From positions 23,479 to 87,478 of the forward strand of contig BDTS01000055.1 of the NCBI GenBank assembly GCA_002897915.1: a DNA stretch of 64,000 bases, in the 5' to 3' direction. A program made the position numbers and the translations under genes. Shown piece after piece: positions 30,764 to 64,000 of this stretch (position 1 is the first letter of the stretch; each line of letters starts with the position of its first letter). The notes under the pieces are model-generated. The model saw nothing but the letters and a program-made list of their open reading frames with translations. It ran no database searches and had not been told where the DNA came from. The stretch comes from a bacterium BMS3Bbin09 (lineage in GTDB: Bacteria > Nitrospirota > Thermodesulfovibrionia > UBA6902).

Positions 30764-31030
30764 CTATGCACCGCTTAATTCGGCTTTATAAATGTCGCAA
30801 GCATTCGTTTGATTTCTATGACAACGCTTATAAGGTTGCCATAATCTGTTTGACTCAGCATTTCGAGATCCTTTATAAGCAATATTAGTAGGGATTGAAG
30901 CAGCGGCACGCCGAATCTGACTTGTCAGACCATGTAATTCGTTTTTCGGAAAAGAGGTTGTTACATGATATACTTCCCTAGTTAATTTGTGTGCTTTTAC
31001 CCACACTTTGAGTTGTTTGAAATCTTTCAA
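30764..31030 (-). pseudogene. Four-helix-bundle protein (23S rRNA IVS / Avd-like family) disrupted by an internal deletion plus frameshift
   Basis: The N-terminal 52 aa (MKDFKQLKVWVKAHKLTREVYHVTTSFPKNELHGLTSQIRRAAASIPTNIA) match the family. The family C-terminus (DLEMLSQTDYGNLISVVIEIKRMLATFIKPN) is readable only in the +1 frame after a ~17-codon gap. The start is TTG. Confidence 0.65.
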
Positions 31031-31616
31031 TATTCGCCCGGTTTATTCTTTTGCTGAACGCTGACAGCTGAAAACTGATAGCTTTTAGAAATGCCTGGTT
31101 CTGCGTAGAGGCAGATACCCTTTTCTTCAATGCCAGATATGTGAGATAGTCTTTCACATCAGCGGAATCCATACTAATAGCATCCGCCTGTTTCACCTTC
31201 ACATCCTTTATGTAATCAAAAAAACATTTCAACCAATATGTATATGTTTGTTCAGTCCTGTACGAATAATGCCTTATACGAATCGCCTCTCGCACCTTAT
31301 CAATCAGGCTTTTGATATCATGCCGAGAACATACCGCTTTAACGTTCCTATTGTTGTTAATTGCAGGATCAACATGATTGAAATACAAACGAACAGCATC
31401 ATGCGCCTGTCTTATTTGCCAATCAGCTATTTTGTTTTGAGTCGCAAGATAATTGATGAACTTTTCCACTTGCAAAGCTTGATTTAACTCCTTGTTATTA
31501 TTAGAAAAAGCCAAGAATTTACTTGCCCAATTAGCGTAATATGTGATATATTTCTCTTGGACAAGGCACTTGGTACGCAAATACTTCTGATAATCAGGTA
31601 ACAAGTCGTTATTCAT
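30978..31616 (-). pseudogene. Tyrosine recombinase fragment: two tandem N-terminal SAM-like/core-binding domains, with the catalytic domain missing
   Basis: The second domain (IRHYSYRTEQTYTYWLKCFFDYI...KRVSASTQNQAFLKAISF) aligns well to the IntI/XerD N-domain (HYSxRTEQxYxxW...KVSxSTxxQA). No R..HxxR..Y catalytic domain follows; the ORF runs into the four-helix-bundle pseudogene. Confidence 0.6.
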
Positions 31617-31668
31617 GATTCATTTTCTGAAAATAACAATAATACCTTAAAATGTCGATTCTACCTAT

Positions 31669-31721
31669 CGTATAGCGTTTTATCCATAATGACTCCGTCA
31701 CTACGGATAAAACGCTATACG
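31669..31721. repeat. Perfect 17-bp inverted repeat CGTATAGCGTTTTATCC / GGATAAAACGCTATACG with a 19-nt spacer
   Basis: Read directly from the sequence. It lies between the recombinase fragment and the antitoxin gene, and has no canonical attC R'/R'' boxes. Confidence 0.85.
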
Positions 31722-31807
31722 TTCTGTCTATGAAATATAAATATCTTGCATAAATGTACTGTAAATAGCATATTATAAATAAAGCTATTAATAGCGAGGA
31801 GTTATTT

Positions 31808-32035
31808 ATGATAAAAACAGATGAGCTAATTTCGGAAGCAGTATCATTACCTGTTGAGACTAGGATAATGTTAGTGAATAAACTTCTTGAAAGCCTGAAT
31901 CCATCAAAGAAAGACATTGATGATTTATGGGCTAAGGAAGCAGAGGAAAGAATTGCAGACTTTAGAAGTGGAAGGGAAAAAGCAATTCCAGGGGAAGCAG
32001 TTTTTAAAGAGATTCGAGAAAAATACAATAAATGA
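31808..32035 (+). CDS. Type II antitoxin, putative addiction-module component (TIGR02574-like)
   Basis: 75 aa (MIKTDELISEAVSLPVETRIMLVNKLLESLNP...DDLWAKEAEERIADFRSG) match the family signature. The stop overlaps the toxin start (ATGA). Confidence 0.7.
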   Translation: MIKTDELISEAVSLPVETRIMLVNKLLESLNPSKKDIDDLWAKEAEERIADFRSGREKAIPGEAVFKEIREKYNK

Positions 32036-32167
32036 AATATTCTTTTCATCCTCTGGCCAGACAAGAGTTGATTGATGCAATTGATTACTACAATGAGTGC
32101 CAAGATGAATTAGGTCTGAAATTCGCAGAAGAAGTTTATAAAGCTATCCAACTTATTCTACAGTTTC
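32032..32167 (+). pseudogene. ParE/RelE-family toxin gene, 5' part, interrupted by the IS256-family insertion
   Basis: MKYSFHPLARQELIDAIDYYNECQDELGLKFAEEVYKAIQLILQF is then broken at the insertion site. It continues in frame at 33591 once the IS and one TSD copy are removed. Confidence 0.75.
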
Positions 32168-33590
32168 GAGAATGTCAAGTTTTTAGTTGAAACTGTCTGA
32201 GTGGCTCTCATCTTCATCTCGTATTTTTATGCAGCCTTCCTGTCAATTAATTCTTTGTTCTGCTGAGTTTCGATATTTTTTATAACCTCAGGAATTGAAG
32301 CGTAGCCTTTGATCCGCCTGAACCTTTTTTCACTGTATACAAGAACCGATGCCAGCCAGCGCTGCATCATCCTGCTGTTACGGTACCGCTTGATATTACC
32401 CTCAGCATCTCTCACTATGGAAAACATACTCTCTATAGGATTGGTAGAATGCAGAGTCTTTCTCAGCAAGCCTGGTACTTTAAGCTTGTGAACGGTGAGA
32501 ATCTCTTCTATAGCTTCCATAAGAGAATCAGCTGCCGACTCATTGATGCTGCGCAGCCACTTCTCCATATCCAATAACATCTGACGGGCATCTTCATAAC
32601 TGTTTTGCTCCAAGGCCGTCCTGAATAGACGATGCGCTTTTTTTCGGTACTTTTTTGCCAGATGCCTCTGAATGTTTTTATCTTTATGAATAGTACACCG
32701 CTGGTGAATCAGCTTCTTGCCAAATCGCTTACGCAATGCCTTGATAATTCCCTTGCCTCCATCCGTGATACAGATGATATGCCGGCTCACTTTCAATCCG
32801 CGCCTCTCCATATCCCCAAATAGCTCTTCACATATCTCATGATTCTCCGTCGCTCCCTGCCAGAATCCCAATACCTTCTTTATTCCTTCTGTATCAATCC
32901 CCAGTCCGATTATGAATGCCTCCCCTCCACGATGGATCGTATCAAGAAATATCGCAAAAGGTTTATATTCCGATAATGACCGCTCCTTAAATTCCCGCAG
33001 CTGCTTTGCCGTTGCCTCAACTATATGCCTGGATACTGATCCGGCTGACACTCCAAATGCCCCTGCCGCATCCACCACCGTCTCTGCATACTTCCGGCAT
33101 GATATTCCTCTCAATACCTTATTCAGAAGCTCCTGTGAAAACTGCTCCCGTTCCTTCAGCTTTCTGTAACTCCTTAACTCTATCTCCCCCTCTGGCCCTC
33201 GAAGGCGCGGGTGCTGCACCCTTATCTTCTGATCTCCTATATAGACTGATCCGGGCTGGCTTGCCCACTTATATACATCAGGACTCAATGGCTGATATTC
33301 AGGTCCTGCAATCTCCTCCCGCTCTATATACATGATCGTCTCTGCCATCATCCTTCCAATTCCCTTCATGTATACATCAAATCCGGCTTTGCCCTTTGCA
33401 TATATTTCATACATCTGCTCCAGTATCTCCTGTTTACCCAATGCTTCTTCCATCCCTCTTGTTGCTTTTTTTCTCTTCTTTGTGCTTTTCTTCATTAGTG
33501 GCTCCTCCTTTTTAAGGATATTGGTTACCCGTGGATTATATCCACGGGGGAGCCACTCTTTCAACTTTCAACTAAGAATAGTATATCCTC
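32168..33590 (-). mobile_element. IS256 (Mutator) family insertion sequence, 1423 bp, with ~40-bp imperfect terminal inverted repeats and an 8-bp target-site duplication ACAGTTTC
   Basis: The TSD copies are at 32160-32167 and 33591-33598. The ends read GAGAATGTCAAGTTTTTAGTTGAAACTGTCTGAGTGGCTC and, reverse-complemented, GAGGATATACTATTCTTAGTTGAAAGTTGAAAGAGTGGCTC. It carries a single transposase ORF. Confidence 0.8.
32227..33495 (-). CDS. IS256-family (mutator-type) DDE transposase
   Basis: Family motifs are present (LDTIH, ITDGGKGI, HQRCTIHKDKN, HSTNPIESMFSIVR). The start is taken at MKKSTKKRKK; the longer ORF would read through the right inverted repeat. Confidence 0.8.
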   Translation of the reverse strand: MKKSTKKRKKATRGMEEALGKQEILEQMYEIYAKGKAGFDVYMKGIGRMMAETIMYIEREEIAGPEYQPLSPDVYKWASQPGSVYIGDQKIRVQHPRLRGPEGEIELRSYRKLKEREQFSQELLNKVLRGISCRKYAETVVDAAGAFGVSAGSVSRHIVEATAKQLREFKERSLSEYKPFAIFLDTIHRGGEAFIIGLGIDTEGIKKVLGFWQGATENHEICEELFGDMERRGLKVSRHIICITDGGKGIIKALRKRFGKKLIHQRCTIHKDKNIQRHLAKKYRKKAHRLFRTALEQNSYEDARQMLLDMEKWLRSINESAADSLMEAIEEILTVHKLKVPGLLRKTLHSTNPIESMFSIVRDAEGNIKRYRNSRMMQRWLASVLVYSEKRFRRIKGYASIPEVIKNIETQQNKELIDRKAA

Positions 33591-33756
33591 ACAGTTTCCT
33601 CAAGCTTGGTCCCCCTTTTCAAAAAACACCCGACGATGCATAATGAATAGATTCCCGTACGGAATTATTTATCAAGAAATAAAAGATAATATTTTAATAA
33701 TTGCAGTCATGCAATTAAATAAAGAACCCATTTATTGGCATAAGAGAGTGAAATAG
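33591..33756 (+). pseudogene. ParE/RelE-family toxin gene, 3' part, downstream of the IS
   Basis: It reads PQAWSPFSKNTRRCIMNRFPYGIIYQEIKDNILIIAVMQLNKEPIYWHKRVK*. Joined to the 5' part it gives a ~97-aa RelE/ParE-like protein. Confidence 0.75.
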
Positions 33757-33775
33757 AGCAGCACAGAACAATTCA

Positions 33776-34429
33776 TTGGTCTCGAATGCAAGCCAGCGGA
33801 AGCTTTTTTTGCTTCCATTATTTTTTTATGTTCAAATCAGTTTTCAGCATGTTATTATTCTCAAGGGCTTGCATCGGACAATTCATCGTTGGTTAAGCCA
33901 GAACGGCTGGGCATCGGGCTTAAATACAGGAGGAACATTGACATATAATCTGAATGCCGGATTAAGCATGGATTGGGGCACAAATTTATGGAGACTGCCA
34001 ACAGTAACGGACACAGGGAATGATGGATGTAACTTTGGCTACAGTGGAACAGATTGTGGCTATAATATAGACACAAGCACGGGAGAGATGGCACATCTGT
34101 GGTTTGATGAGCTGGGTAATCTGGCATATTACGACACATTAGGCAACGAAAATCAAGACGGCTGGGGTCTGACAAACACCGGAAATTTTCAGAATCTGCA
34201 GGCCGGCTACTATTGGTCTGATACTGAGTATTCTCCCGATCCTACGCTCGCGTGGGACTTCAGTACGAGCTACGGCCACAAGGGCGTCCCCAGCAAGTAC
34301 TTTCAAGAGCAAGGTATAGCCGTTCGATCCGGACAACTCGCCGTTGCCCCGGAGCCGGTATCGACAGTATTATTCCTGATCGGCGGAGTATTGCTTGCAG
34401 GACGAATGAGATACAGACAGCGTAATTAG
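33776..34429 (+). CDS. PEP-CTERM sorting-domain protein (possible DUF1566/Lcl-like region); the 5' end is probably frameshifted
   Basis: The C-terminus is APEPVSTVLFLIGGVLLAGRMRYRQRN (PEP motif, TM, basic tail). The ORF starts with TTG and has no signal peptide. A signal-like peptide (MFKSVFSMLLFSRACIGQFIVG) is encoded from ATG 33828 in another frame and stops at 33896. Confidence 0.55.
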   Translation: MVSNASQRKLFLLPLFFYVQISFQHVIILKGLHRTIHRWLSQNGWASGLNTGGTLTYNLNAGLSMDWGTNLWRLPTVTDTGNDGCNFGYSGTDCGYNIDTSTGEMAHLWFDELGNLAYYDTLGNENQDGWGLTNTGNFQNLQAGYYWSDTEYSPDPTLAWDFSTSYGHKGVPSKYFQEQGIAVRSGQLAVAPEPVSTVLFLIGGVLLAGRMRYRQRN

Positions 34430-34854: not shown

Positions 34855-35115
34855 ATGAATTTTGAATTTGATGATAATAAAAGCAACACCAATAAAAAGA
34901 AACATAAGATTAATTTCAATGAAGCCCAGGAATTATGGGATGATCCTGATTTAATTGAAATTCCTATTATATCAAGTGATGAGTCACGATATTTAGTAAT
35001 TGGAAAAATATCAGGGAAACATTGGTCAGGCATTATTACTTATAGAGAAGAAATAATAAGGATTATATCTGTTAGGCGTTCCAGGAAAGAGGAGGTTGAT
35101 ATATATGAAAGCTAA
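34855..35115 (+). CDS. brnT: BrnT-family toxin (DUF497 ribonuclease)
   Basis: 86 aa with family motifs (FEFDDNKSNTNKKKHKINFNEAQELWDDP...RIISVRRSRKEE). Confidence 0.75.
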   Translation: MNFEFDDNKSNTNKKKHKINFNEAQELWDDPDLIEIPIISSDESRYLVIGKISGKHWSGIITYREEIIRIISVRRSRKEEVDIYES

Positions 35116-35329
35116 AGACATTGACAAGAAATTTGATGAAGGCAAGGATATTTCGAAACATCTTGACCTTTCAAAAGCCAGAAGACCTGAGCAGGAACAA
35201 AAAAGGGTTAATGTAGACTTCCCCTTATGGATGATCCAACAATTGGACAGAGAAGCAAAACGTTTGGGTGTGCCTCGTCAATCTATCATTAAGGTTTGGG
35301 TAGCAGAGCGTCTTGAAAGAGCATCTTAA
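35096..35329 (+). CDS. brnA: BrnA-family antitoxin (ribbon-helix-helix / CopG-like C-terminus)
   Basis: The start overlaps brnT. The C-terminal segment VNVDFPLWMIQQLDREAKRLGVPRQSIIKVWVAERL is typical. Confidence 0.7.
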   Translation: MIYMKAKDIDKKFDEGKDISKHLDLSKARRPEQEQKRVNVDFPLWMIQQLDREAKRLGVPRQSIIKVWVAERLERAS

Positions 35330-35399
35330 ATAATGTTCTAACAAGTCACTTAAGAGGAGGCTCTAAAGCTGGCGCTTTTGCGCACCCCTCATTTCGGCG

Positions 35400-37143: not shown

Positions 37144-38304
37144 CTAATTTGCCTTTGCTTTGAGTTTTACCACAAACTCTTTCTTCTCTTCACTAAAATC
37201 ATCCTTCCTCATGAAGGTCGGGATATCAAGATAATCCTCGCTGCCCTTCGTATCCTTTGAGAGCACCCGTGCCGAGCCTTTCAGTGTATTCACATCCCTT
37301 GACGGCCTCCATTTATCGTATGAAGGCATGACCGCGCACGGTTTTTCCTCGAAGCCAGTAGCAATTACGGTTATTATTATCTTATCGTCAAGGTCGGTGT
37401 CGATCGCCGAACCGAAGATTATCTCGGCGTCTTCATGCGCGGCATCGCGGATAAGGCTGGCCGCCTCGTGTACCTCATGAAAGGATAGGGAGGAACCCCC
37501 ATTGATGTTTATCAATACTCCTTTTGCTCCATCAATGGAGGTTTCCTCCAGCAGGGGGCTTCTTATAGCCATCTTGGCCGCATTCTTTGCGCGATTCTCT
37601 CCCTCCGCGCTGCCTATACCCATCAGCGCTTTTCCGCTGTCAGTGAGTATTGTCTTTATATCCGCGAAATCCTGATTGATAAGACCAGGAACGAGTATCA
37701 GGTCGGATATGCCTTTTACCGCCTGCCTCAGAACATCGTTCGCAAGGTTCAGCGCCTGCAGCCATGGGGTATTCTTTTCCGTTATATCCAGCAGCCTGTT
37801 GTTGTGAATAATTATTATCGAGTCAACATGCTTTTTAAGTTCTTTTATTCCCTGCTCGGCGTTTCTGCCCCTCTTGTTCCCTTCGAACAGAAAAGGTCTG
37901 GTAACGACTGCTGTTGTAAGGATCCCGAGGGCCCTGGCTGTTTCCGCAACGACCGGGGCCGCCCCTGTACCTGTTCCTCCGCCCATGCCGGCTGTAACAA
38001 ATACCATATCCGCGCCTTTAATGGCCTCTTCGATTATGTCCCTGTCATCTATCGCGGCCTGCCGTCCTGTCTCGGGGTTCGCTCCGGCACCGAGTCCTTT
38101 TGTCAGTGAACTGCCTATCTGGATACGCTGGTGCGCAAGTGAGGATTCAAGCGCCTGGGCGTCAGTATTAACGGCAATGAACTCAACACCCTGCAGACTG
38201 GACGCTATCATGCTGTTTACAGCATTGCTTCCGCCTCCGCCGACCCCCACTATCTTGATCTTTGCGGCCGTGTTCTGCATCTCTTCCATCTCAAATATCT
38301 TCAT
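37144..38304 (-). CDS. ftsZ: Cell division GTPase FtsZ
   Basis: Tubulin signature GGGTGTG, FtsZ N-core and C-terminal tail. Confidence 0.97.
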
Positions 38305-38369
38305 ACTCCCCCCTTTTCAAAATTTACTATTATCTGTGATCTATTTTTGTTGTATTTATATTTCATCTC

Positions 38370-39629
38370 TTATCCGAACATCTGCCCGAACCATCTCCTT
38401 ACCCTTGTCCCCGCGCCAATAACAGCTTTTTCCTTGTACTCCTGTTCGAGCAGAACTTCTTTCACCCCGTGGAGCATAAGCCCGACAGCCGTTGCATAGG
38501 CCGGGCTCTTGATATTGTCAGTAACGCTTTCTACCCCTTCGGGGATCATCCCTATCCTGATTGGAAGCTCCAGGATGCTCTCGGCCATCACGTCCATTCC
38601 TTGCATCAGGACAGCTCCGCCTGTCAGTACCACACCCGAGTTCATGTTCTCATGAAATCCGCTGTTCATGAGATCTTCCCTGATAAGGGTAAAGAGCTCT
38701 TCTGCCCGCGGCTGCAGTATCTCGACAAGATACCTCCTCGGTATCTTCTTGTTAACACTGGTGTCGGAACAGCTGACCTCTATCTCCTCCTCTTCCTTGA
38801 CGAGCGAGATCATTGAACACCCGAACTTCTTTTTTATATTCTCAGCTTCCTGTGTAGGGAGCCTCAATCCTATAGCGATATCATTTGTAAAGTTGTTCCC
38901 GCCTATTGGGAGCACAGACGAATGGCAGAGGGTCCCGTTCCTGAAAAGCGCGATATCGGTCGTGCCGCCGCCTATATCAATAAGAACGACTCCGAGGTCC
39001 TTTTCGTCCTGCGTAAGTACCGCGTTGGCCGAGGCAAGCGGCTGGAACACAACATCGAGTAATTCAAGTCCGGCCTTTCGGCAGCTACTGGTAAGGTTAT
39101 GTACAGAGGTAGCTGCGGCGGTAATTATCTGGACGTTCGTCTCAAGCCTGATTCCTTCCATTCCGCAGGGATCGGTGATGCCGTTCTCCCCGTTCACACT
39201 GAAACCGAGCGGGATAACATGAAGTATTTCTCTGTCAAACGGGATCGCGACCGCCTTTGCCGCCTCTATAACACTATCGACATCCCGGCGCCCTATTTCC
39301 TTTTCTTGCACGGCTATTACACCATTGCTCGAGAGACACCTGATATGCGCTCCTGTTATACCTATCTGGGCGGCCCTTATATCAACACCGGCCATTCTCT
39401 CCGCCTCACTGACAGCCTTCCTGATAGATTTAACCGTCTTCTCTATATTGGTCACCACACCCTTTTTGATCCCCCTGGAAGGAACCGTACCCACACCAAT
39501 AACATTAAAAGTGCTGCCTTGTCCAGAAACCTCTCCAACAACAGCACATATCTTTGTCGTGCCGATATCGACCCCCACCAAGAGCCTTCCGTTCTTCATT
39601 GATGTATCCTTCAATAAACCCAGTTGCAT
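38370..39629 (-). CDS. ftsA: Cell division protein FtsA
   Basis: Actin-like ATPase (VGVDIGTTKI). The real start may be the internal Met at 39599. Confidence 0.9.
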   Translation of the reverse strand: MQLGLLKDTSMKNGRLLVGVDIGTTKICAVVGEVSGQGSTFNVIGVGTVPSRGIKKGVVTNIEKTVKSIRKAVSEAERMAGVDIRAAQIGITGAHIRCLSSNGVIAVQEKEIGRRDVDSVIEAAKAVAIPFDREILHVIPLGFSVNGENGITDPCGMEGIRLETNVQIITAAATSVHNLTSSCRKAGLELLDVVFQPLASANAVLTQDEKDLGVVLIDIGGGTTDIALFRNGTLCHSSVLPIGGNNFTNDIAIGLRLPTQEAENIKKKFGCSMISLVKEEEEIEVSCSDTSVNKKIPRRYLVEILQPRAEELFTLIREDLMNSGFHENMNSGVVLTGGAVLMQGMDVMAESILELPIRIGMIPEGVESVTDNIKSPAYATAVGLMLHGVKEVLLEQEYKEKAVIGAGTRVRRWFGQMFG

Positions 39630-39631
39630 TA

Positions 39632-40417
39632 TTAAGATAATTTCCCTTTTTTGATCTTTTCCATCGGTTTCACGATAACTGAATCCTTGAACCTTAAGTC
39701 TATGTACTTGATCAGCACACCTCTTTTCCGTATTTCAGGTTCGAGCTCGATCCATCTCTCAAACTTTTCCGAATAATCTCCATAACCAACTTTTATCAAC
39801 TCGCCGTCCATATTTATAAAAAGCCCGTAAGATTCTGTCCCTATTTCTACAGACTCCATACTGCTTAAAATGTTCTTTTCAGACAGCAAAGATATAAGCT
39901 TCAATGCCTCCGTTATGTCCTTTTTGTTCTTCGGGCTGATCCCCTTTAGAACTGGCAGGAACAGTGTGCTTTCACCTTTTATCCTCTCGAGAATATTGCC
40001 GTTCTCATCAATGATATATAATTTCTTTTTTATACTCAAAAGGGCCTTGGGCACTGCCTCTTCGACCTTTATCAGAAGTGTTCCGGGAAACTGTTTTTTA
40101 AGCGCGACACTCTTTATCCAGGGGTTCTCCCTGAGCCTCTCGTTAATGTCCTCGGAACGGATATCCAGAAGAGGCTGTCCTTTTGTTATCTTCATGCTCT
40201 TGACAATATCTTCTTTATCCAGATGATAGTTACCCGAAACGATTATCTCATTCACACTGAAATGGCGCGTCAGCAGTTTTGTCCCAAGCACAAGTGCCGC
40301 GACAACTATACACGCCAGAAGAACCAAGGTGCCCCTTTTCAGATATATCGCGAGCTTCTCACCACGCCTGTAGGCGGGTTTACGCACTTTCCTGGTTATT
40401 TTCTTCTTAGAGCGCAA
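39632..40417 (-). CDS. ftsQ: Cell division protein FtsQ/DivIB
   Basis: Bitopic with a POTRA domain, in the dcw position between ddl and ftsA. Confidence 0.8.
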
Positions 40418-41378
40418 GTTTTATCATCTCCTCTATCAGGTCGTTAAAGCTCATACCGCCCGATCTCGCGATCTTGGGAAGCAAACTCGTTGTGGTCATA
40501 CCCGGCAGTGTATTTACCTCAAGCACATAAGGGGAGTTATTTCCGTCCAGTATAAAGTCCACCCTGCTCGCGCCCGAACAGCCGAGAACAAGATGGGCCT
40601 TGAGTGCCATCTCTTTTACATTCTCATAAACCTCTTCTTCGATCTCCGGCGGTAATATGTAATCGGTAAGTCCTGACGTATATTTTGCCTCATAGTTATA
40701 GAACTCAAGCGACGGCCTCACCTCAACACCGCCAAGCACCCTGTTACCCAGAACTGCTATATGGAGTTCTCTGCCTTTTATGAATTGTTCGATTATGACC
40801 CTGTTGTCAAATGAAAAGGCCTTTCCGAGACACGGTTCCAGCCCGCTCTCCTCCTTGATTATCTCGACACCGATGCTCGAACCCTCGGATGAAGGCTTAA
40901 CAACCCAGGGCGGCCCGAACGGAGGCACGGGAAATCCGGGAAACATGTAAGCCCCGGTGGCATCAGGGAGATTCTCCGCACTCTTGCTTTTCTTACCCTT
41001 CTTTTTTACTACTATTATGGAAGGCGCCATCGGTAATCCATGATATGAGAATATTTTCTTCGAGGCCTCTTTGTCCATGGCAAGGGCAGAGGCAAGCACA
41101 CCCGAACCTGTATACGGGATCCCCATCACCTCGAGCAGTCCCTGAACAGCACCGTTCTCTCCAGTCCCACCGTGAAGCGCCATGAAGGCTATTTTTACTT
41201 TATCCTTTTTAAGTACATTGGCAATGTCCTTGCCGACATCCACGGCAACAGCGTCATAACCGAGTTCCATCAGGTTCTGATATATAGCAAGACCGCTCCG
41301 CATGGAGATCTCTCTCTCCGATGATATGCCCCCCATTAATACTCCTATTCTCTTTTTAGTGACCGGGCCTTTGCTCAT
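40407..41378 (-). CDS. ddl: D-alanine--D-alanine ligase
   Basis: ATP-grasp fold with Ddl motifs ([17 protein letters not shown]). Confidence 0.92.
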
Positions 41379-42298
41379 TAGTTTGCGCCCCCGATGATCT
41401 TGATCTCAGTTTCGAGTTCTATCCCGCTGCGTTGCATGATCTTTTTCTTTACGATCTCCATGAGCTGTAAAAATTCCGCGCAGGTCCCGCCGTTCTTATT
41501 AATAAAATAATTGGCGTGCATCTGGCTCACTTCTATACCGCCCACCCTCATCCCTTTACACCCTGCAGCATCTATTAATTTACCCGCGGCGTCCGCTTCG
41601 GGGTTCTTAAAGACGCAGCCGGCCGAGTGTACGCCAAGGGGCTGAGTGGCCTTCTTTATGTTCATGAATTCCCTGGTCCGTGCCGACACATCCGAGGGCA
41701 CATCCTTCTTGAGTACAATATTGGCGCTTAAGATCAGCATCCCCTCTGGCAGTTCCAGATTCCTGTATGAAAAATTGAGTTCGTCCCTGCCAAGGACAAA
41801 TATCTCTCCCTGAGCATTCATGACCGCGATAGAAGTTATCACGTCCTTGATCTCTGTAGCGAATGACCCCGCGTTCATAAAAACCGCACCGCCAACATAT
41901 CCGGGTATACCGACAAGCCCCTCTATTCCGGAATATCCGCCCTCACACGCAAAATTTATCAGCGTTACGAGCGGAGTACCAGCGCCGACGCATAAGACGA
42001 CTTTTTCTTCATCCGTTTCTTTTGTATATTCAATGCTCCTGAATGCCTTAAGGGATACTGCGATCCCCTCGATCCGGCTGTCGCTGGCGAGCAGGTTCGT
42101 CCCTGCCCCAAAGACAAATAATGGGATATTCTCTTTTTCAGCCGCAACCAGTGTATTTTTTAGTGATACCGGGTCCTCCGGGAAGACCAAAATATCGACA
42201 GGCCCGCCTATTTTCAGGGAAGTATGCGCTGACATAGGTTCGTCAAACCTTATCTCTCCCTGGATAGCCTCACATATATTGGAGTTCAGGTCTTTCAT
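41378..42298 (-). CDS. murB: UDP-N-acetylenolpyruvoylglucosamine reductase
   Basis: FAD-binding PCMH domain followed by the MurB C-domain. Confidence 0.9.
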
Positions 42299-43698
42299 TT
42301 TTCCTCCGTACTCTCTTTTTTCATTTTCAGGAACTCTTCCCCGATCTTCCAGACATCACCCGCGCCAAGGGTCAGAAGGATATCACCCGCCCTAAGCTCC
42401 GTATCGAAATAACCCGGAATATGATCTCTCTCTTTTATATATTCAATGTCTTTGCCCATCTCACTTATCCCTCTGAAAATCAGTTCCGAATTCACTCCCG
42501 GCAACGGCTTTTCCCCGGCCGGATATATATCCATCAGGACAACCTTGTCGGCATCCCTGAAAGAATCAATAAATTCACCGAGCAGGTCCCTCGTCCTCGT
42601 GTACCTGTGTGGCTGGAAGAGAACAAAAAGTCTGCCGTCTTCCCCCGCGTCTCCGGTCTTCAACACATCTTTGACCGCCTTCAGTGTCGCCATGATCTCC
42701 GAGGGATGATGTCCATAATCATCAATCACCTTGATCCCGGCCGCTGTCCCTTTCAGCTCGAACCTTCTTTGAACACCGCTGAAGTTCCTGAGTGCCTCCC
42801 TTATACTCTCGATATCCAACTTAAGTTCATTCGCGACCGCTATCGCGGCAAGGGCATTGGATACATTGTGTTCGCCGACAAGGGGCATATCGAACCGGCC
42901 AAGCGATCTCCCGTTGAGCACGGCCTCGAACTCAGAATTCATCCCCTCGGTCCTGACATCCTTCGCCACAAGATCAAGGCCCTCGCTCAGCCCGTACGTA
43001 ATAAACCTTCTCCTGATATCAGGCAGAAGCTCCCTTATATATTCATTGTCCCCGCAGAGTATTGCGAGCCCGTAAAACGGCACCTTGTTTATAAATGAAA
43101 GAAATGCCTCCTGTATTGTCTCAATGTCCTTAAAAAAGTCCATGTGCTCCCTGTCAATGTTCGTGACTACCGCGATCGTAGGCGAAAGCATAAGGAAGGA
43201 ACCGTCGCTCTCGTCTGCTTCCGCGATCAGAAACTCGCCCTCTCCAAGTTTTGCGTTACTGCCGATACCCTTCAGTTTGCCGCCGATCACAACAGTCGGA
43301 TCAAGGTTGCAGTCACCAAGCAGGCTCGCTATCAGTGAGGTCGTCGTCGTCTTCCCATGCGCCCCCGCAACGAGCACGCCGTATTTGAGCCTTGCGAGCT
43401 CCGCAAGCATCTCGGCCCTCGGTATGACCGGGATAGACATTTTCCTGGCGGCCATGACCTCGGGGTTATCCAGAGCCACAGCGGAAGATATAACGACTAC
43501 GTCCGCATTCTTTATATTCTCCTCGCTATGTCCGATGTTTATGTTAATGCCCAGTTCCCCAAGCCTCTTTGTGATCTCAGACTCCCTGAGGTCGGAACCA
43601 TCAACCTCATAACCAAGATTTCTGAGCACCTCGGCAATACCGCTCATACCGACACCTCCGATACCCACAAAATGAACTCTTTCGAATCTTTTATACAT
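42295..43698 (-). CDS. murC: UDP-N-acetylmuramate--L-alanine ligase
   Basis: Mur ligase with an N-terminal Rossmann motif (VHFVGIGGVGMSG) and GTHGKTTTT. Confidence 0.95.
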   Translation of the reverse strand: MYKRFERVHFVGIGGVGMSGIAEVLRNLGYEVDGSDLRESEITKRLGELGININIGHSEENIKNADVVVISSAVALDNPEVMAARKMSIPVIPRAEMLAELARLKYGVLVAGAHGKTTTTSLIASLLGDCNLDPTVVIGGKLKGIGSNAKLGEGEFLIAEADESDGSFLMLSPTIAVVTNIDREHMDFFKDIETIQEAFLSFINKVPFYGLAILCGDNEYIRELLPDIRRRFITYGLSEGLDLVAKDVRTEGMNSEFEAVLNGRSLGRFDMPLVGEHNVSNALAAIAVANELKLDIESIREALRNFSGVQRRFELKGTAAGIKVIDDYGHHPSEIMATLKAVKDVLKTGDAGEDGRLFVLFQPHRYTRTRDLLGEFIDSFRDADKVVLMDIYPAGEKPLPGVNSELIFRGISEMGKDIEYIKERDHIPGYFDTELRAGDILLTLGAGDVWKIGEEFLKMKKESTEEK

Positions 43699-43742
43699 GT
43701 TTAAATCCGTTCTCCGTTAATACCCGACGGCCAATAATCCTT

Positions 43743-44843
43743 TCATCGCTTTTTTTTTAAAAGGGCCGTTATAAGTTCAATGACCTTGTCGGTCGCCCCC
43801 CTGTTACCCAGAGACCTGCTTATACGTTCCATCTCCGACAGCGCATCGGAGTCCTCTATCAGGAATTTGATCATATCAAAAAGTTTTTTACCATCAAGGT
43901 CCCGGTCAAGTATCAGCTGGGCCGCGCCCATGTCCCATAATTTCCTCGCGTTCATTTCCTGATGATTGCCCGCGGAATACGGAAACGGAACAAGTATAGC
44001 GGCTTTCCCGCACGCAGTCAATTCAGCGAGGGTCGTGGCGCCGGCCCTTGATATAATAAGCTCCGCAACAGAATACGCATCGGCCATCTGATAGGCAAAC
44101 GGGATGACTGTTCCCTTAAATCCCTTTGAACTGTAGATCTCCTTCATCACATCAAAATCTTTTTCTCCGGTCTGGTGCAGGAACTGGATATTCTCCTTTA
44201 AAGGCTCCAGATATGTCAGCGCCTCAGCAATAGCATTATTGATATGGCTCGCACCCCGGCTGCCGCCGAATATGAATATAGTAAAAAGTTTTCTGTCAAG
44301 ACTGAAAACCTCGCAGCCATTGTCCCGGTCACCGTTAAGTATCTCCTCACGAACAGGATTGCCTGTTAAGAACACCTTCTCACGGGGAAAATACTTTATG
44401 CTTTCATGGTACGTTACCGCCACTGTATCAACAAGCTTTCCAAGCAGCTTGTTAGCGAGACCAGGGACAGTATTCTGTTCATGGATCAAGGTCGGTATCC
44501 CCATCAGTTTCGCGCACAAAAGTACGGGGCCGGAACTGTAACCGCCGACTCCCATTACCAGCTCCGGTCTTATGTCCTTCAATATCCTGAACGAGTCCAT
44601 TATCGAAAGAGGTACTTTTAAGGCCGCCCTGACCGTATCGATAATATCCCTGCCCACAAGCCCCTCGGAACGTATGAACCTCAGGTCATATCCTTCCCTC
44701 GGAATTATTTTTGCTTCGATCCCGCGTACAGTACCGACGAATGTGACCTTCGCTCCCGGTAGAGTTTTTTTCAGCCCCCTCGCAACCGCCAGCGCCGGGA
44801 AGACATGCCCGCCTGTACCGCCGCCCGCAATTATAATATTCAT
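43743..44843 (-). CDS. murG: UDP-GlcNAc:undecaprenyl-PP-MurNAc-pentapeptide GlcNAc transferase
   Basis: GT28 family (IAGGGTGGHVFPALAVA). Confidence 0.95.
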   Translation of the reverse strand: MNIIIAGGGTGGHVFPALAVARGLKKTLPGAKVTFVGTVRGIEAKIIPREGYDLRFIRSEGLVGRDIIDTVRAALKVPLSIMDSFRILKDIRPELVMGVGGYSSGPVLLCAKLMGIPTLIHEQNTVPGLANKLLGKLVDTVAVTYHESIKYFPREKVFLTGNPVREEILNGDRDNGCEVFSLDRKLFTIFIFGGSRGASHINNAIAEALTYLEPLKENIQFLHQTGEKDFDVMKEIYSSKGFKGTVIPFAYQMADAYSVAELIISRAGATTLAELTACGKAAILVPFPYSAGNHQEMNARKLWDMGAAQLILDRDLDGKKLFDMIKFLIEDSDALSEMERISRSLGNRGATDKVIELITALLKKKR

Positions 44844-45982
44844 CTGCGACTTCTCCTATGAGTGTTATACACAGGGTTGCTATTGTATGCGTTGTTTTCA
44901 TTCTGACGCGATATGCTTATCAATATAGCGGCCGCGCACATGTTTATAAGAAGCGCCGAACCTCCGTAACTTATGAAAGGCAGGGGCAGTCCCTTTGTCG
45001 GCATAAGTCCCATGGATACCGCAAAATTAATAACGGCCTGCACACCTATCATCATGGTCAATCCCATTGTCAGAAAATAACTGAAGGGGTCGCTTGTCCG
45101 TAAAGATACCTGGACCCCTCTTATAAAAAACCAGACAAAGATGCCGACCACAGTCAGGGCTCCTATCAACCCAAGCTCTTCACTTATGAGGGAAAAAATG
45201 AAATCCGTATGGACCTCCGGCAAAAAATAAAGCTTCTGTTTACTGCCCCCGAGTCCGACACCAAAAAAACCGCCGCTGCCAAATGCAATGAATGACTGCA
45301 CGAGCTGGAACCCGTCTCCGAACGAATCCTTCCACGGATTGGTAAAACTCATTATCCTTTTCATCCTGTACGAGGACGAGGAGACAACTATGTATATCAC
45401 GGGTAATGAAGAGAGTACGAGCGCGCCTATGTGACTTAACCTCGCCCCTCCAAGTATCAGGAGGCCCACGGTAAGTATCCCGAGACTCATCACCGCCCCG
45501 AAATCCGGCTGGGCAATAATAATGCCCTGAAAGATGAGCATTATAACGACCGGGATCAGAATACCGTACTTGAATTCTCTCATCCTATGAATGTTTTTGT
45601 CCATATAGTCCGCAAGAAATATCACCATCACAAGCTTCACAAGCTCTGACGGCTGGAATGTCGTCGGCCAGAGCCGCAGCCACCTCCTCGCACCATTGGC
45701 TGATATCCCGATCCACGGAACAAAAACAAGCAGTATCAGAAACAGTGAGAATCCCATCATGATATAAACAAAAGACCTGAACTTCTTATAGTCTGTCCTG
45801 GATAGAATAAGCATCGCCGCTATCCCGACACATAAAGTAAATATATGGTTCCAGAGATAATGGGAACCGCTCCCGTATTTCCTCATGGACATGAGTGCCG
45901 TTGAGCTATAGACCATCACGGTCCCTATGCACACGAGCAGCATCACTGAAATAACTATGTCACGTGTATATCTGGAGTTCAT
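44840..45982 (-). CDS. ftsW: Lipid II flippase / peptidoglycan glycosyltransferase FtsW (SEDS)
   Basis: SEDS family polytopic protein at the dcw position between murD and murG. Confidence 0.9.
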   Translation of the reverse strand: MNSRYTRDIVISVMLLVCIGTVMVYSSTALMSMRKYGSGSHYLWNHIFTLCVGIAAMLILSRTDYKKFRSFVYIMMGFSLFLILLVFVPWIGISANGARRWLRLWPTTFQPSELVKLVMVIFLADYMDKNIHRMREFKYGILIPVVIMLIFQGIIIAQPDFGAVMSLGILTVGLLILGGARLSHIGALVLSSLPVIYIVVSSSSYRMKRIMSFTNPWKDSFGDGFQLVQSFIAFGSGGFFGVGLGGSKQKLYFLPEVHTDFIFSLISEELGLIGALTVVGIFVWFFIRGVQVSLRTSDPFSYFLTMGLTMMIGVQAVINFAVSMGLMPTKGLPLPFISYGGSALLINMCAAAILISISRQNENNAYNSNPVYNTHRRSRR

Positions 45983-47421
45983 TTTATGAGTTCCCTTACC
46001 ACCTCTTTGAACTTACGGCCCCTCTCCTCAAAATCAGCAAACATATCAAAACTCGCACAGCCTGGTGAAAGCAGCACCACATCACCTTTGGATGCGTTTG
46101 CCATAGAGACCTTGACCGCCTCACTGAGACCATTGACCTTTATGGTCCGGACCGTGCCTCCCAGGGCCTGAGCTATCTTCTCCGCTGCCTCCCCGATCAA
46201 TACCAGGAGCTTCACCTTTTCTTCTATCAGATCACGCAAAACCGGAAAGTCACCGCCTTTGTCCAGGCCTCCCATGATCAGCACTACTCTTTCAAGACCT
46301 TCAAGGGACTTTGCAACAGCCCCGACATTCGTACCCTTTGAGTCATTTATAAAATTGACCCCGTTTATCTCCTCAACGAACTCTAGTCTGTGCTCGAGTC
46401 CTGCAAAATTCTTCAGCACATCTTTGACGGCCTTATCCGGACACCCTGAAAGCAATGCTATCAGTGAGGCCGCCATCGCGTTCTCAATGTTATGAACTCC
46501 TTTTATTTTTATCTCATCAGTCGAAATGATCGGGGAATCAATAACCCCGCGCAAAGGGAGAGGTATATTGCAATAGATATCTTCCCCCTTCATGTATATT
46601 CCCTCGACCTCTTTTTTGCGGCTGAAAAATAATACATTCGGCATTTCCGCCTTCTTTGCGTCATACAACTCCATTATCAACGGATCGTCCGCGTTAAGCA
46701 CCAGATAATCATCCTCTGTCTGATTCTCAAAGATCCTCACCTTTGCGTCAATGTAATACTGCATGCCCTCATACCTGTCAAGATGGTCAGGGGTTATATT
46801 AAGGATAGCAGCAACTTCAGGTCTGAACTCCTTTATGGTCTCGAGCTGGAAACTCGATATTTCGGCCACGATGTATTCAGGCATTGAATCCATTTTCTGT
46901 ATTTCTTCTGTAAGGGCATTGCCGATATTTCCGCCAAGCAGTGTCCTGCGCCCCGCCTCTTTGAGCATAAGGTCTATAAGTGTGATCACGGTCGACTTGC
47001 CATTAGTGCCAGTGACCCCGATAAAGGCAGGTAAGGAGTAATGAGTACCGGTTAATGAGCCTTCAAGGCCCACCTTACTGCTCATGATTCGGAACTCATT
47101 ACTCCTCACGCTTTGGTAGGCAAGTTCTAGTTCGCCGATCACCGGGATACCCTTTGCCCTTGCATTTGCAAGCAGGGGGATACTAAGAGGAACACCGGGG
47201 CTTACCAGTATCAGATCGGCTTCGTTAAAGACCTCTTCCGGGTTTTCACCAGTAACGATCTTTACATCAGGCGGCAATTTACTTATATGTTCTTCAAGTA
47301 AACTCCTGGGCCTCTTGTCCGTAATCGTTACATGCGCACCGGCCGAGGAGAGAAGATTGGCGGCGCCTCTCCCGCTTCTTGCGAGACCAACCACCAGAAT
47401 TTTTTTATCTCTAAATTTCAT
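45979..47421 (-). CDS. murD: UDP-N-acetylmuramoylalanine--D-glutamate ligase
   Basis: Mur ligase motifs (GTNGKST). The start was chosen at MKFRDKKILVVGLARSG; the ORF extends to 47445. Confidence 0.93.
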   Translation of the reverse strand: MKFRDKKILVVGLARSGRGAANLLSSAGAHVTITDKRPRSLLEEHISKLPPDVKIVTGENPEEVFNEADLILVSPGVPLSIPLLANARAKGIPVIGELELAYQSVRSNEFRIMSSKVGLEGSLTGTHYSLPAFIGVTGTNGKSTVITLIDLMLKEAGRRTLLGGNIGNALTEEIQKMDSMPEYIVAEISSFQLETIKEFRPEVAAILNITPDHLDRYEGMQYYIDAKVRIFENQTEDDYLVLNADDPLIMELYDAKKAEMPNVLFFSRKKEVEGIYMKGEDIYCNIPLPLRGVIDSPIISTDEIKIKGVHNIENAMAASLIALLSGCPDKAVKDVLKNFAGLEHRLEFVEEINGVNFINDSKGTNVGAVAKSLEGLERVVLIMGGLDKGGDFPVLRDLIEEKVKLLVLIGEAAEKIAQALGGTVRTIKVNGLSEAVKVSMANASKGDVVLLSPGCASFDMFADFEERGRKFKEVVRELIK

Positions 47422-47463
47422 TATTTTCTCTGCCACCTGTATCATTTATTTAACTTAATACTT

Positions 47464-48546
47464 TTACCTGATCTTAAATGTCGTCAGGCTCAAAAGCGCC
47501 AGTATAATGCCCACTATCCAAAACCTTACTATTACCTTTGATTCATGCCATCCTTTTTCTTCAAAATGATGGTGGATAGGCGCCATCTTAAATACCCTTT
47601 TGCCGGTAAGCTTAAACGACAGTACCTGGATCATTACGGAGATGGTCTCCATTACGAATATACCGCCTACTACTGCCAGCAAGATCTCGTGTTTGGTTAT
47701 TACCGCGAGTGTGCCGAGCGCTCCCCCGATACCGAGTGAACCAACATCACCCATGAAGACCTCGGCAGGGTAACTGTTAAACCAGAGAAATCCGAGTGCA
47801 GCGCCGAACATGGCCCCGCAAAATACCGTCAGCTCACCAGTACCCGGCAGGAAAAGAACATGCAGATACTTTGAAAAACCGACATGGCCCGATATATATA
47901 CGAGAGCCCCGTTAGCAAGACATGCAATGCCCACCAGCCCGATGGCAAGGCCGTCTATTCCGTCAGTCAGGTTGACCGCGTTCGAGGCCCCAACTATCAC
48001 AAGTATCGAAAAGGGGATGTAGAACCATCCCAGATCGATCATCCACTTCTTGAAAAACGGGATACTTAACATTGAAAAATTCGGGTCGCTCTGATCAGAA
48101 TAGAACAAAACCCCTATCGCAAGGGCCAGCATGATCTGTGCACCGAATTTATACCATCCCCGCAGTCCCTTTGAGTCTCTCCTTATTGCCTTAAGATAAT
48201 CATCCGCCAGCCCTATAAAACCGAACCCGACTATCGCGGCCATCATTATAAGGATATATTTATTGTTCATGTCGCCCCACATCGCGACACTCATTACCAC
48301 CGAAAAGATAATAAGCAGCCCGCCCATAGTGGGGGTGCCTGTCTTTTTAAGATGGGTTTTCGGACCGTCGTCCCTGACATGCTGGATGAAGTCCGCCTTC
48401 TTCAGCATGGCGATGAGCCAGGGGGCCAATATGAACGTGATCACCAGAGCCGTGATCGTCGCAAGTACCGCCCTGAAAGTAATATACCTGAATACATTAA
48501 ATGGTGAATAGACCTCGTGAAGTGAATAAAAAAGCTTATATAACAT
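47464..48546 (-). CDS. mraY: Phospho-N-acetylmuramoyl-pentapeptide transferase
   Basis: Polytopic with DD/DxxD motifs (NAVNLTDGIDGLA). Confidence 0.96.
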   Translation of the reverse strand: MLYKLFYSLHEVYSPFNVFRYITFRAVLATITALVITFILAPWLIAMLKKADFIQHVRDDGPKTHLKKTGTPTMGGLLIIFSVVMSVAMWGDMNNKYILIMMAAIVGFGFIGLADDYLKAIRRDSKGLRGWYKFGAQIMLALAIGVLFYSDQSDPNFSMLSIPFFKKWMIDLGWFYIPFSILVIVGASNAVNLTDGIDGLAIGLVGIACLANGALVYISGHVGFSKYLHVLFLPGTGELTVFCGAMFGAALGFLWFNSYPAEVFMGDVGSLGIGGALGTLAVITKHEILLAVVGGIFVMETISVMIQVLSFKLTGKRVFKMAPIHHHFEEKGWHESKVIVRFWIVGIILALLSLTTFKIR

Positions 48547-49912
48547 TTCTTATGCTCCTGATTATTTTTTCCATCAGCATTGATCGTGAACCTTTAATTA
48601 AAAGTGTATCGCCCTGTTTCAGAATATTCATGATCTCTTTCCCGGCCTCGTCAGCATCCCTGAAGGAAAAGACCTCTGGTGTCATTCCTGTTTTCATACT
48701 CTCCTCCACTGCCAGGCCCATCATTTCTCCTACAGCCACAAAAACATCCACATCTGCCTCCGAGAGCAGTCTGCCGATCTCCCTGTGAGCTTCTTCAGAA
48801 AAGTCCCGGAGTTCTTTCATATCACCGAGCGCGGCAACCACCCTGCCACCGGTCCCGGAGCCCATACGGACGAGCTCTTTTATCGACTCGGCCATTGATG
48901 TCGGATTCGCGTTGTAAGAGTCATTTATCATTGTAATACCGTTCTCCTTTATAACCTCGAACCTCATCGGGAACGCGCTGTAACCGTCAAGCGCGGCCTT
49001 TATCTCATCAATGGTCACACCGAGCGAAAAAGATACGGTAGCAGCAGCAAGCGCGTTGTATACATTAAAGAGTCCATGCACATTCAGGTTTATCGGGATA
49101 CTTCCCGCGTTTCCGAGCTCCAGCGTAAAGTCGGTACCGTTCTCAGTTGCCCTGATCTCACTGGCCCTGACATGGGACTCGTTCTCTATCCCGAAGGTTA
49201 TTATCTGCCCCTTAAAGGAGACCTCACGTATACCCTGCATTAACCTGTCGTCATCGGTATTAACAACCGCGACACCAAGTTCCCCGAGTATCTCGAGCTT
49301 CGCGGCCCTCAGCGTCTTATAACTGCCGAGTTCTCCGATATGAGCAGTGCCCACATTAGTGATCACGCCATGGCTCGGCACCGCAATTTCACAGAGCCTC
49401 TTTATCTCTCCTGAATGGTTCATCCCCATTTCAAGGACGATCATCTCATCCTCAGGTTCCAGCTTCATAAGGCTCAAAGGCAGACCGATATGGTTATTGA
49501 GGTTCCCTTGATTCTTCAGGGTCCTGAATCTTTTTGAGAGGACGGCATGGATCATCTCCTTGACCGTGGTCTTCCCGTTACTGCCCGTGATCGCTATTAC
49601 AGGAATACTGCGTCTCATCCTGATAAAATGCGCCAGGTCCTGCAGAGACTTAAGTGTATCTTCAACACAGACTATCGCCTTGCCTTCCGGCAGTTTTTCC
49701 GGCCTTATATCCACAACCGCGCCGCTTCCCTGCAAAAGCGCGTTATTGAGAAATTCATGCCCGTCAAACTTCTCGCCCCTTATGGCAAAGAAAATCTCAT
49801 TGTCCGAGATGCTGCGGGAATCGATCGAAACACCGCTGAAATCAACGGAACTATCAGAGAGAAGTTCTCCTCCAGTTGCCTCGATGATCTCTTCTATTGT
49901 CAGATTTGCCAT
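48536..49912 (-). CDS. murF: UDP-MurNAc-tripeptide--D-alanyl-D-alanine ligase
   Basis: Mur ligase (GSNGKTT) at the dcw position. Confidence 0.93.
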   Translation of the reverse strand: MANLTIEEIIEATGGELLSDSSVDFSGVSIDSRSISDNEIFFAIRGEKFDGHEFLNNALLQGSGAVVDIRPEKLPEGKAIVCVEDTLKSLQDLAHFIRMRRSIPVIAITGSNGKTTVKEMIHAVLSKRFRTLKNQGNLNNHIGLPLSLMKLEPEDEMIVLEMGMNHSGEIKRLCEIAVPSHGVITNVGTAHIGELGSYKTLRAAKLEILGELGVAVVNTDDDRLMQGIREVSFKGQIITFGIENESHVRASEIRATENGTDFTLELGNAGSIPINLNVHGLFNVYNALAAATVSFSLGVTIDEIKAALDGYSAFPMRFEVIKENGITMINDSYNANPTSMAESIKELVRMGSGTGGRVVAALGDMKELRDFSEEAHREIGRLLSEADVDVFVAVGEMMGLAVEESMKTGMTPEVFSFRDADEAGKEIMNILKQGDTLLIKGSRSMLMEKIIRSIRNVI

Positions 49913-49915
49913 GAT

Positions 49916-51415: not shown

Positions 51416-51438
51416 TTAACCCGTTAAGGCGGTCCTCC

Positions 51439-63718: not shown

Positions 63719-64000
63719 ATGCGAAAACCATTTATAGCAGCAAATTGGAAGATGAACAAGACCGCTGAGGAGACCGAAGCTTTCATCAACTCTTTTCTCC
63801 CTATGGTCAAAGATGTAACAGATGTCGATATCCTGCTGGCACCGCCTTTTACTTCATTAAGCGCAGCGGCAAAACTTCTGAAAGGGTCCAATGTGATCCT
63901 CGCTGCCCAGAACATGCATTTTGAAGAGAATGGAGCCTATACCGGCGAGATATCGTGTGAAATGCTCCGCTCCGCGGGCTGTACATGCGTGATCATCGGG
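63719..64000 (+). CDS. tpiA: Triosephosphate isomerase, 3'-partial
   Basis: It begins MRKPFIAANWKMNKT (TIM N-terminal signature) and runs off the window end. Confidence 0.85.
   Translation, partial: MRKPFIAANWKMNKTAEETEAFINSFLPMVKDVTDVDILLAPPFTSLSAAAKLLKGSNVILAAQNMHFEENGAYTGEISCEMLRSAGCTCVIIG

Follow-up and report, generated by a model that had tools for sequence, protein, structure and literature searches.

An IS256-family insertion sequence within a predicted ParE-type toxin gene of an uncultured Nitrospirota bacterium, with the antitoxin gene intact

Introduction

Insertion of an insertion sequence (IS) into genes, toxin genes included, is routine. Within the IS256 family, ISCth4 is the member with a structurally solved transposase (PDB 6xg8, 6xgw and 6xgx; residues D175, D241 and E348, and C262), which has been shown to perform copy-out/paste-in transposition (PMC7780238). 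The terminal inverted repeat of ISCth4 known as R-TIR holds a -35 element, and the ends of IS256-family elements form hybrid promoters (PMC7780238). ParE toxins, solved from Caulobacter (3kxe), P. aeruginosa (6xrw) and M. tuberculosis (ParE2, 8c26), are small proteins with a beta-alpha-alpha-beta-beta-beta fold, and in ParDE modules the toxin gene lies directly downstream of, and overlaps, a small antitoxin gene. Antitoxins without a partner toxin are common in natural populations, and an anti-addiction role has been suggested for these orphans (PMC7192599). This work describes an IS256-family element inserted into the toxin gene of a toxin-antitoxin operon, in a stretch of 64,000 nt (contig BDTS01000055.1, positions 23,479 to 87,478; hereafter the window) of the metagenome-assembled genome (MAG) bacterium BMS3Bbin09. 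The underlying samples (PRJDB5792) are from subseafloor massive sulfide deposits of the Southern Mariana Trough (PMC11427306), and close homologues of the window proteins carry Nitrospirae or Nitrospirota labels in a cluster-member look-up.

The element resembles ISCth4 and IS256 in having one transposase, a Mutator-type DDE enzyme whose insertion domain contains a CxxH motif, and the IS256 family in general in its length of ~1.4 kb, its imperfect inverted repeats of ~40 bp and its 8-bp target duplications. As in ISCth4, bp 6-11 of the distal repeat form a -35-like hexamer, and a -10-like hexamer is found close to the proximal tip. The element is nevertheless distant in sequence from named members, ISCth4 included (phmmer to 6xg8, E 8.4e-20), would need a junction spacer of 6-8 bp against the 5-6 bp of ISCth4, and has its own conserved subterminal motif, TAGTTGAAA, whereas TGTAAA has been noted for the family (PMC7780238). 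The toxin shares the gene order and, as predicted, the fold of the ParDE modules, but its sequence identity to the solved ParE toxins is 15-24%, and the antitoxin is a PF09720/TIGR02574 'addiction module component' and not the ribbon-helix-helix protein ParD. As in the orphan antitoxins surveyed in Klebsiella pneumoniae (PMC7192599), an antitoxin is apparently left without a working toxin in its original context, a situation listed there among the origins of orphan antitoxins; in contrast to that survey, the generating event can here be followed at base resolution, with both alleles in one environmental population.

We consider it very probable that the IS transposed very recently into codon 46 of a ParE-type toxin gene, as a chance hit by which the toxin was lost and the antitoxin kept.

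Results

Reconstruction of the insertion

The insertion comprises the following features:

31808-32035, plus strand: antitoxin gene, intact, 75 amino acids (aa); GBE40797.1, 'putative addiction module component'
32032-32167, plus strand: 5' fragment of the toxin gene, codons 1-45 and one further nt, matching nt 1-136 of the unbroken gene exactly
32160-32167: copy 1 of the target-site duplication, ACAGTTTC, single copy in empty sites
32168-33590, minus strand: complete IS256-family IS, 1423 bp, with identical copies elsewhere and absent from the empty-site contigs L009-L012 and L092
33591-33598: copy 2 of the target-site duplication, ACAGTTTC
33599-33756, plus strand: 3' fragment of the toxin gene, from the rest of codon 46 to the TAG at 33754-33756, encoding the beta-sheet core and the C-terminus

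The 8-bp direct repeat ACAGTTTC flanks the element at exactly the two positions that an initial annotation of the window, made from the letters alone, had assigned to it. One further plus-strand occurrence of this 8-mer is found in the 64 kb, at 51782, and the probability of a random 8-bp match at two fixed positions is ~1.5e-5. The 5' fragment of the toxin gene runs into the IS and stops at 32190, which gives a 52-aa open reading frame (ORF) that ends in …LILQFRECQVFS and consists of 45 native residues followed by RECQVFS. The 3' fragment is without a start of its own, except for an internal ATG at 33643 (37 aa). Removal of the IS and one copy of the duplication, by splicing 32032-32167 to 33599-33756 as proposed in the initial annotation, restores a 294-nt gene with a continuous 97-aa ORF.

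Empty sites and polymorphism

Empty-site loci were collected from assemblies of the same study through exact look-ups of two proteins, the antitoxin and the variant of prolyl-tRNA synthetase (ProRS) encoded nearby. Five contigs (L009, L010, L011, L012 and L092) correspond to the window locus minus 1431 bp, the IS plus one repeat copy. Their toxin gene is unbroken and identical to the in-silico splice over 294/294 nt, ACAGTTTC is present once and the empty junction reads CTTATTCTACAGTTTCCTCAAGCTTGG. Among them, L092 (104,202 bp) belongs to the sister MAG BMS3Abin09. Another contig, L013 (a k127 contig from a different assembler), terminates exactly at 32167, as is expected when the assembly graph branches into a repeated IS.

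No substitutions are present across the IS copies and both toxin halves, which indicates that the insertion is very recent and polymorphic. Because an unbroken gene is retained in the sister MAG and in further assemblies from this study, the insertion is a polymorphic allele and a recent event, not a fixed state.

Other copies and relatives of the element

An exact look-up of the 422-aa transposase returned seven metagenome contigs, all with DNA 100% identical to the element. They include L001, L002, L004 and L005, of which L005 is exactly the 1423 bp (32168-33590) measured in the initial annotation; another contig is the element plus 2 nt. Stand-alone IS contigs are the usual appearance of a collapsed repeat. 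In L001, the identical element has the same first and last base, unrelated flanks and a different 8-bp duplication, TTATAGAA. A third right-hand junction is found in L002 and L003: in L002 the left flank of the L001 site is followed, past the element, by another right flank, without a duplication, and L003 shares that right flank. The sources of L001-L003 are the ENA assemblies ERZ1742237 and ERZ1742235 and Logan DRR093002. The L002 arrangement may be a chimera assembled across copies of the IS, or it may reflect a true deletion or rearrangement mediated by the IS. Coverage in ERZ1742238 is the same for the stand-alone IS contig (193.9x) and for the chromosomal empty-site contig (194.7x).

These contigs raise the question of whether any cell carries the occupied allele, as a repeated IS could have been mis-threaded into the toxin gene during assembly. 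Such an artefact would agree with the stand-alone contigs of ~1.4 kb, typical of collapsed repeats, with the joining in L002 of left and right flanks from different sites without a duplication, and with the lack of the IS in every other long contig of the locus. However, a mis-join cannot yield a perfect 8-bp duplication of a target that is single-copy in the empty allele, and the independent assembly by another assembler (L013) breaks precisely at the left junction. We regard an artefact as extremely improbable and retain a genuine, recent insertion.

The closest relatives of the element are unnamed copies with transposases 60-78% identical, in MAGs of Nitrospirota, Desulfobacterota, Acidobacteriota and other lineages. 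In four long-read MAGs, 56 complete related copies were delimited, with target duplications of 8 bp (41/56), 9 bp (8/56) or 7 bp (2/56), or none (5/56). The shared architecture of their tips is GAGGxTATxCT…TAGTTGAAA and TTTCAACTA…TTGACxxxxTC. Recurrence of the terminal repeats and of the target duplication at other copies, the lack of which the initial annotation had named as a refutation, is seen both in L001 with TTATAGAA and in 49/56 relatives with duplications of 8-9 bp.

A scan of JGI metagenomes with the exact 41-nt proximal repeat gave 0 matches; with the 25-nt tip it gave four loci, two of which are distant relatives whose right ends are not reliably placed. Another of the four, contig L096 (JACKQG010041748.1, binned as Candidatus Brocadiales), has 88% DNA identity over the whole element and no flanking duplication. 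Transposases more than 90% identical are present in contigs binned to a different phylum, Planctomycetota, which may reflect horizontal transfer of the IS or wrong binning of short contigs that contain it; the ftsZ gene in the window supports a non-planctomycete host. No copy from the genome of the window itself was returned by a scan of GTDB species representatives (best transposase match 77% identical), and the plasmid collection gave no DNA match to the element (best transposase protein match 35% identical). Within the 64-kb window, blastn and tblastn searches with the element and its transposase found no second copy, only the self-match.

Family assignment and target preference of the element

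The ends and the gene of the element are:

32168-32207, minus strand: IRR, the transposase-distal inverted repeat, 40 nt, containing an outward TTGACA
33550-33590, minus strand: IRL, the transposase-proximal inverted repeat, 41 nt, with tips conserved in relatives
32227-33495, minus strand: transposase gene, 422 aa plus stop, GenBank GBE40798.1

The element starts with GAGAATGTCAAG… and finishes with …TAGTATATCCTC. The terminal inverted repeats, described earlier as imperfect and ~40 bp long, measure 40 and 41 nt, and 31/42 columns of the IRR/IRL alignment match. The sole long ORF occupies the minus strand from a TTG (32227-33564); the best start is the ATG at 33495, which is preceded by AAAGGAGGAG and yields the 422-aa protein. 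This protein scores 216.6 bits against NCBIfam NF033543 'IS256 family transposase' (cut-off 150) and 120.2 bits against PF00872 (cut-off 21, E 1.3e-34). The catalytic triad D185/D245/E355 (spacing D-60-D-110-E) and the CxxH motif (C267-H270) align with those of ISCth4, in agreement with the IS256/mutator-type DDE transposase recognised initially. The transposase score, the DDE and CxxH motifs, the inverted repeats, the single ORF in ~1.4 kb and the 8-9-bp duplications together place the element in the IS256 family, of which it is apparently an unnamed member. Given the recent insertion, the IS is probably still active.

To look at target preference, 51 related insertions were spliced out, and in 40 of these an ORF of 60 aa or more spans the junction. 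Ten of the 23 ORFs of at most 260 aa were scanned. None of the ten was a toxin or antitoxin, in a limited test in which many spliced ORFs look spurious. Two of the ten are other transposases (IS200-like Y1 and IS110-family, at L046 and L063), so that at these two loci, both in long-read MAGs, related ISs are nested within other transposase genes. No obvious consensus exists among the duplicated 8-mers of the related copies. These data give no sign of anything beyond chance in the insertion into a toxin gene.

The interrupted toxin-antitoxin operon

The stop codon of the antitoxin gene overlaps the start codon of the toxin gene by 4 nt (ATGA, 32032-32035). The antitoxin matches PF09720 (Unstab_antitox) with 62.7 bits (cut-off 23.3) and TIGR02574 with 43.4 bits (cut-off 31.9). 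Its protein sequence is identical in the empty-site loci L009-L013, which bears out the earlier statement that the antitoxin is retained intact. One feature marks the other end of the operon:

33798-33826, plus strand: terminator-like hairpin plus T-run past the toxin stop (pattern match only)

This hairpin is likely the end of the toxin-antitoxin operon.

The spliced toxin scores 37.9 bits against PF05016 (ParE_toxin, cut-off 23) over residues 3-83. Identity to full-length 97-aa homologues reaches 92%, and almost all of the 120 homologues among the matches listed carry a precomputed PF05016 assignment. At the junction, F45, P46 and W49 vary little or not at all among these homologues. The family profile matches M. 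tuberculosis ParE2 (8c26) with an E-value of 2e-6. A weak tblastn match at 63778-63867, considered as a paralogue of the toxin, was rejected, being the start of the triosephosphate isomerase gene.

An AlphaFold (AF2) model of the toxin built from 119 sequences has a predicted local distance difference test score (pLDDT) of 92.7; an earlier model from 19 sequences (pLDDT 54.6) was discarded. The top Foldseek matches of the model are the ParE structures 6xrw, 8c26 and 3kxe, with template modelling (TM) scores of 0.75-0.79, against 0.65-0.67 for RelE. The similarity of the spliced ORF to ParE/RelE toxins is thus found in the Pfam score above cut-off, in the homologues and in the predicted fold. 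The initial label 'RelE/ParE-like' stands at the level of the superfamily, by Pfam and fold, and is refined by the TM scores, as the predicted fold makes the toxin ParE-type rather than RelE-type.

Strand 1 and two helices span residues 2-44 of the model, and the strands of the sheet are at 56-60, 66-73 and 76-84. Insertion of the IS after residue 45 divides the beta1-alpha1-alpha2 part from the beta-sheet core. As the two halves of the fold are separated, loss of toxin activity is very likely. The claim that the toxin is inactivated therefore holds for the split of the gene in mid-fold, while the inactivation itself is deduced from the position of the break.

A homologous locus in another genome (L008) has the same layout of a 75-aa antitoxin and a 97-aa toxin. 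Relative to this homologue, the ratio of nonsynonymous to synonymous substitution rates (dN/dS) is 0.16 for the toxin and 0.21 for the antitoxin, which indicates purifying selection on both. These values are relevant to the idea that the operon was already defunct, such that the IS landed in a pseudogene and inactivated nothing. The small decayed islet around the operon, which contains the N-terminal part of an integrase, an incomplete 23S_rRNA_IVP ORF and another toxin-antitoxin pair, BrnT/BrnA, is in line with prior decay. Yet the 97-aa ORF of the intact allele is full-length and keeps every residue that is invariant in the family, the toxin family is under purifying selection (dN/dS 0.16), the model is confidently ParE-fold, and the coupled antitoxin-toxin architecture is preserved in homologues. 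We therefore find a previously dead operon unlikely and favour an insertion into a toxin gene that was intact until then.

Promoter elements and leader fold-back

Two further features are predicted at the proximal end of the element:

33535-33564, minus strand: predicted transposase promoter TTGAAA-18-TATAAT, within IRL (consensus match only)
33496-33558, minus strand: leader fold-back, in which the inner motif of IRL, GAGUGGCUCC, pairs with the Shine-Dalgarno region GGAGGAGCCACU

A perfect TTGACA faces outward at bp 6-11 of IRR (32173-32178, minus strand), and the -10-like TATACT occupies bp 6-11 of IRL (33580-33585, minus strand); TTGAC is kept at the equivalent position in relatives. In the predicted circle junction, the IRR end …TTGACATTCTC is followed by N(6-8) and by GAGGATATACT… of IRL, and with this 6-8-bp spacer the junction would build the promoter TTGACA-N16-18-TATACT. 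The internal TTGAAA-18-TATAAT has 11/12 consensus matches and is the top promoter-like site in 31600-33900.

The outward hexamer allows another view, in which the main effect of the IS is on antitoxin expression: the -35 of IRR would make a hybrid promoter and drive an antisense RNA over the stub and the antitoxin. The perfect TTGACA lies 5 bp from the tip of the IS and is aimed at the antitoxin, a TAAGTT hexamer follows 17 bp downstream in the flank, and hybrid promoters are known for IS256-family ends (PMC7780238). However, TAAGTT matches only 3/6 of the -10 consensus, the site went unreported by the promoter scan, and the toxin is physically split whatever the transcription. A primarily regulatory insertion appears very unlikely, and disruption of the toxin gene is kept as the main outcome.

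The arms of the fold-back helix are GUGGCUCC and GGAGCCAC, and an inner hairpin (CCCGUGGAU/AUCCACGGG) spans the predicted -10 in the transposase leader. RNA that begins at the tip of the IS, as in read-through, folds with -37.1 kcal/mol (z -4.95), and RNA from the predicted own start of the element is unstructured (-4.6 kcal/mol, z -0.5). Both helices are retained in 16 relatives (60-78% transposase identity, among L014-L089), where 96% of the cells are paired versus ~40% with the partners slid. Compensatory changes occur at four leader pairs, a result that 0/500 shuffles equal. The outer helix is nearly invariant and its 5' arm doubles as part of the transposase-binding repeat, so the support from covariation comes mainly from the inner hairpin.

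The fold-back probably blocks translation of read-through transcripts and would guard the element against outside promoters. A fold-back that hides the ribosome-binding site of the transposase in read-through transcripts was reportedly described for IS10 and IS50 by Mahillon and Chandler in 1998; we know of no description for the present IS256 subgroup. As in IS10 and IS50, inverted-repeat sequence pairs with the Shine-Dalgarno sequence only in RNAs begun outside the element, with the element's own promoter located downstream of the 5' arm. The difference is that the present element adds a covarying inner hairpin around the -10.

Genomic neighbourhood

The GenBank proteins of the window include GBE40797 (antitoxin), GBE40798 (transposase), GBE40802 (ProRS) and GBE40803 (FtsZ), all from a contig 99,926 bp long. 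Upstream of the operon, a decayed tyrosine-recombinase gene is located at 30764-31616 on the minus strand, with a 212-aa ORF that has the N-terminal SAM-like domain PF13495 and is without the catalytic domain. It overlaps a truncated ORF for a 23S_rRNA_IVP (four-helix-bundle) protein that covers profile positions 1-48 of 106 only, and this decayed state is the same in all sister contigs. Between the integrase fragment and the antitoxin lies a perfect hairpin with a 17-bp stem (31669-31721, -29.4 kcal/mol, z -6.8), unique in the window. For the idea of an integron, no attC site was callable among the hairpins of the folded intergenic regions near the integrase fragment.

A second type II toxin-antitoxin pair is located 1.1 kb downstream, at 34855-35330, with a BrnT toxin gene (PF04365, 85.8 bits) ahead of one for a CopG/BrnA-like antitoxin. 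The two toxin-antitoxin pairs and the integrase remnant form a small islet between surA-like/dsbA genes and proS-ftsZ. Between both pairs, an ORF at 33776-34429 has a PEP-CTERM-like tail, …PEPVSTVLFLIGGVLLAGRMRYRQRN, and a weak Lcl_C match under the cut-off; its called start and length vary by assembly (153-206 aa), with 1-nt indels among alleles. Beside proS, a standard division and cell-wall cluster (ddl, ftsQ, ftsA and ftsZ, preceded by mur genes) occupies 37144-53268 on the minus strand. Rfam and tRNA scans of the whole window returned nothing.

Discussion

The events at this locus may be pictured as follows. The IS would have moved by copy-out/paste-in via a double-stranded circle, a step suggested by its family membership. 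Integration into codon 46 would have duplicated 8 bp of the target, ACAGTTTC, with the element antisense to the operon, and would have cut the toxin of a chromosomal type II toxin-antitoxin operon. What is left would be a 52-aa stub, translationally coupled to the antitoxin, and a promoter-less 3' remnant, with the antitoxin gene and its upstream region unchanged. The simplest reading is a chance insertion that was tolerated, presumably as a neutral change, because loss of the toxin while the antitoxin is still made would cost the cell nothing.

The loss could instead have been selected, either because the toxin is costly or because an orphan antitoxin is useful in anti-addiction, immunity or regulation, which would turn an addiction module into a protective one. 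The perfect preservation of the antitoxin and its upstream region fits this idea, as do the abundance of orphan antitoxins and their proposed role as anti-addiction modules (PMC7192599). On the other side, the event is too recent to bear a signature of selection, with zero substitutions in the IS or the toxin halves, and the intact allele is found in most assemblies. In addition, the 64-kb window contains no further ParE or PF09720 gene that could serve as a target of the antitoxin, and related ISs showed no bias towards toxin-antitoxin genes among the sites examined. Selected loss is in our judgement improbable, and chance remains the preferred account. A bolder version, which we regard as improbable, holds that the IS turned the ParE module into a stand-alone antitoxin retained because it is useful in itself (for immunity against related ParE toxins of incoming mobile elements, or for transcriptional regulation) and that the fold-back with its inner hairpin is an undescribed regulatory module of the Nitrospirota/Desulfobacterota/Acidobacteriota IS256 subgroup.

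Several points weigh against a recent chance insertion that abolished the toxin. The occupied allele is known from one assembled MAG contig and one contig end. Two element contigs, L002 and L096, are without a matching duplication, which we attribute to chimeric metagenome assembly or to recombination between IS copies. The 52-aa stub could in principle keep an antitoxin-binding or regulatory activity. Finally, toxicity, neutralisation by the antitoxin and transposition of the IS are deduced from sequences and models.

The phenomenon is ordinary and its conceptual weight is small; its value is that of an unusually clean and fully reconstructed case, in which a single environmental population supplies both the empty and the occupied allele, the duplicated target and further identical copies of the IS. 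It also corrects the public annotation, in which the split toxin is uncalled. The 52-aa stub is absent from the protein collection, and the intact 97-aa toxin is present there only from ENA assemblies, with no NCBI accession. The ends of an apparently unnamed IS256-family element and its relatives are now defined, which aids MAG curation and IS annotation. For the organism, the recent insertion points to an IS that is currently active in an uncultured lineage, and the case shows that toxin-antitoxin decay can begin with a knock-out of the toxin while the antitoxin is spared.

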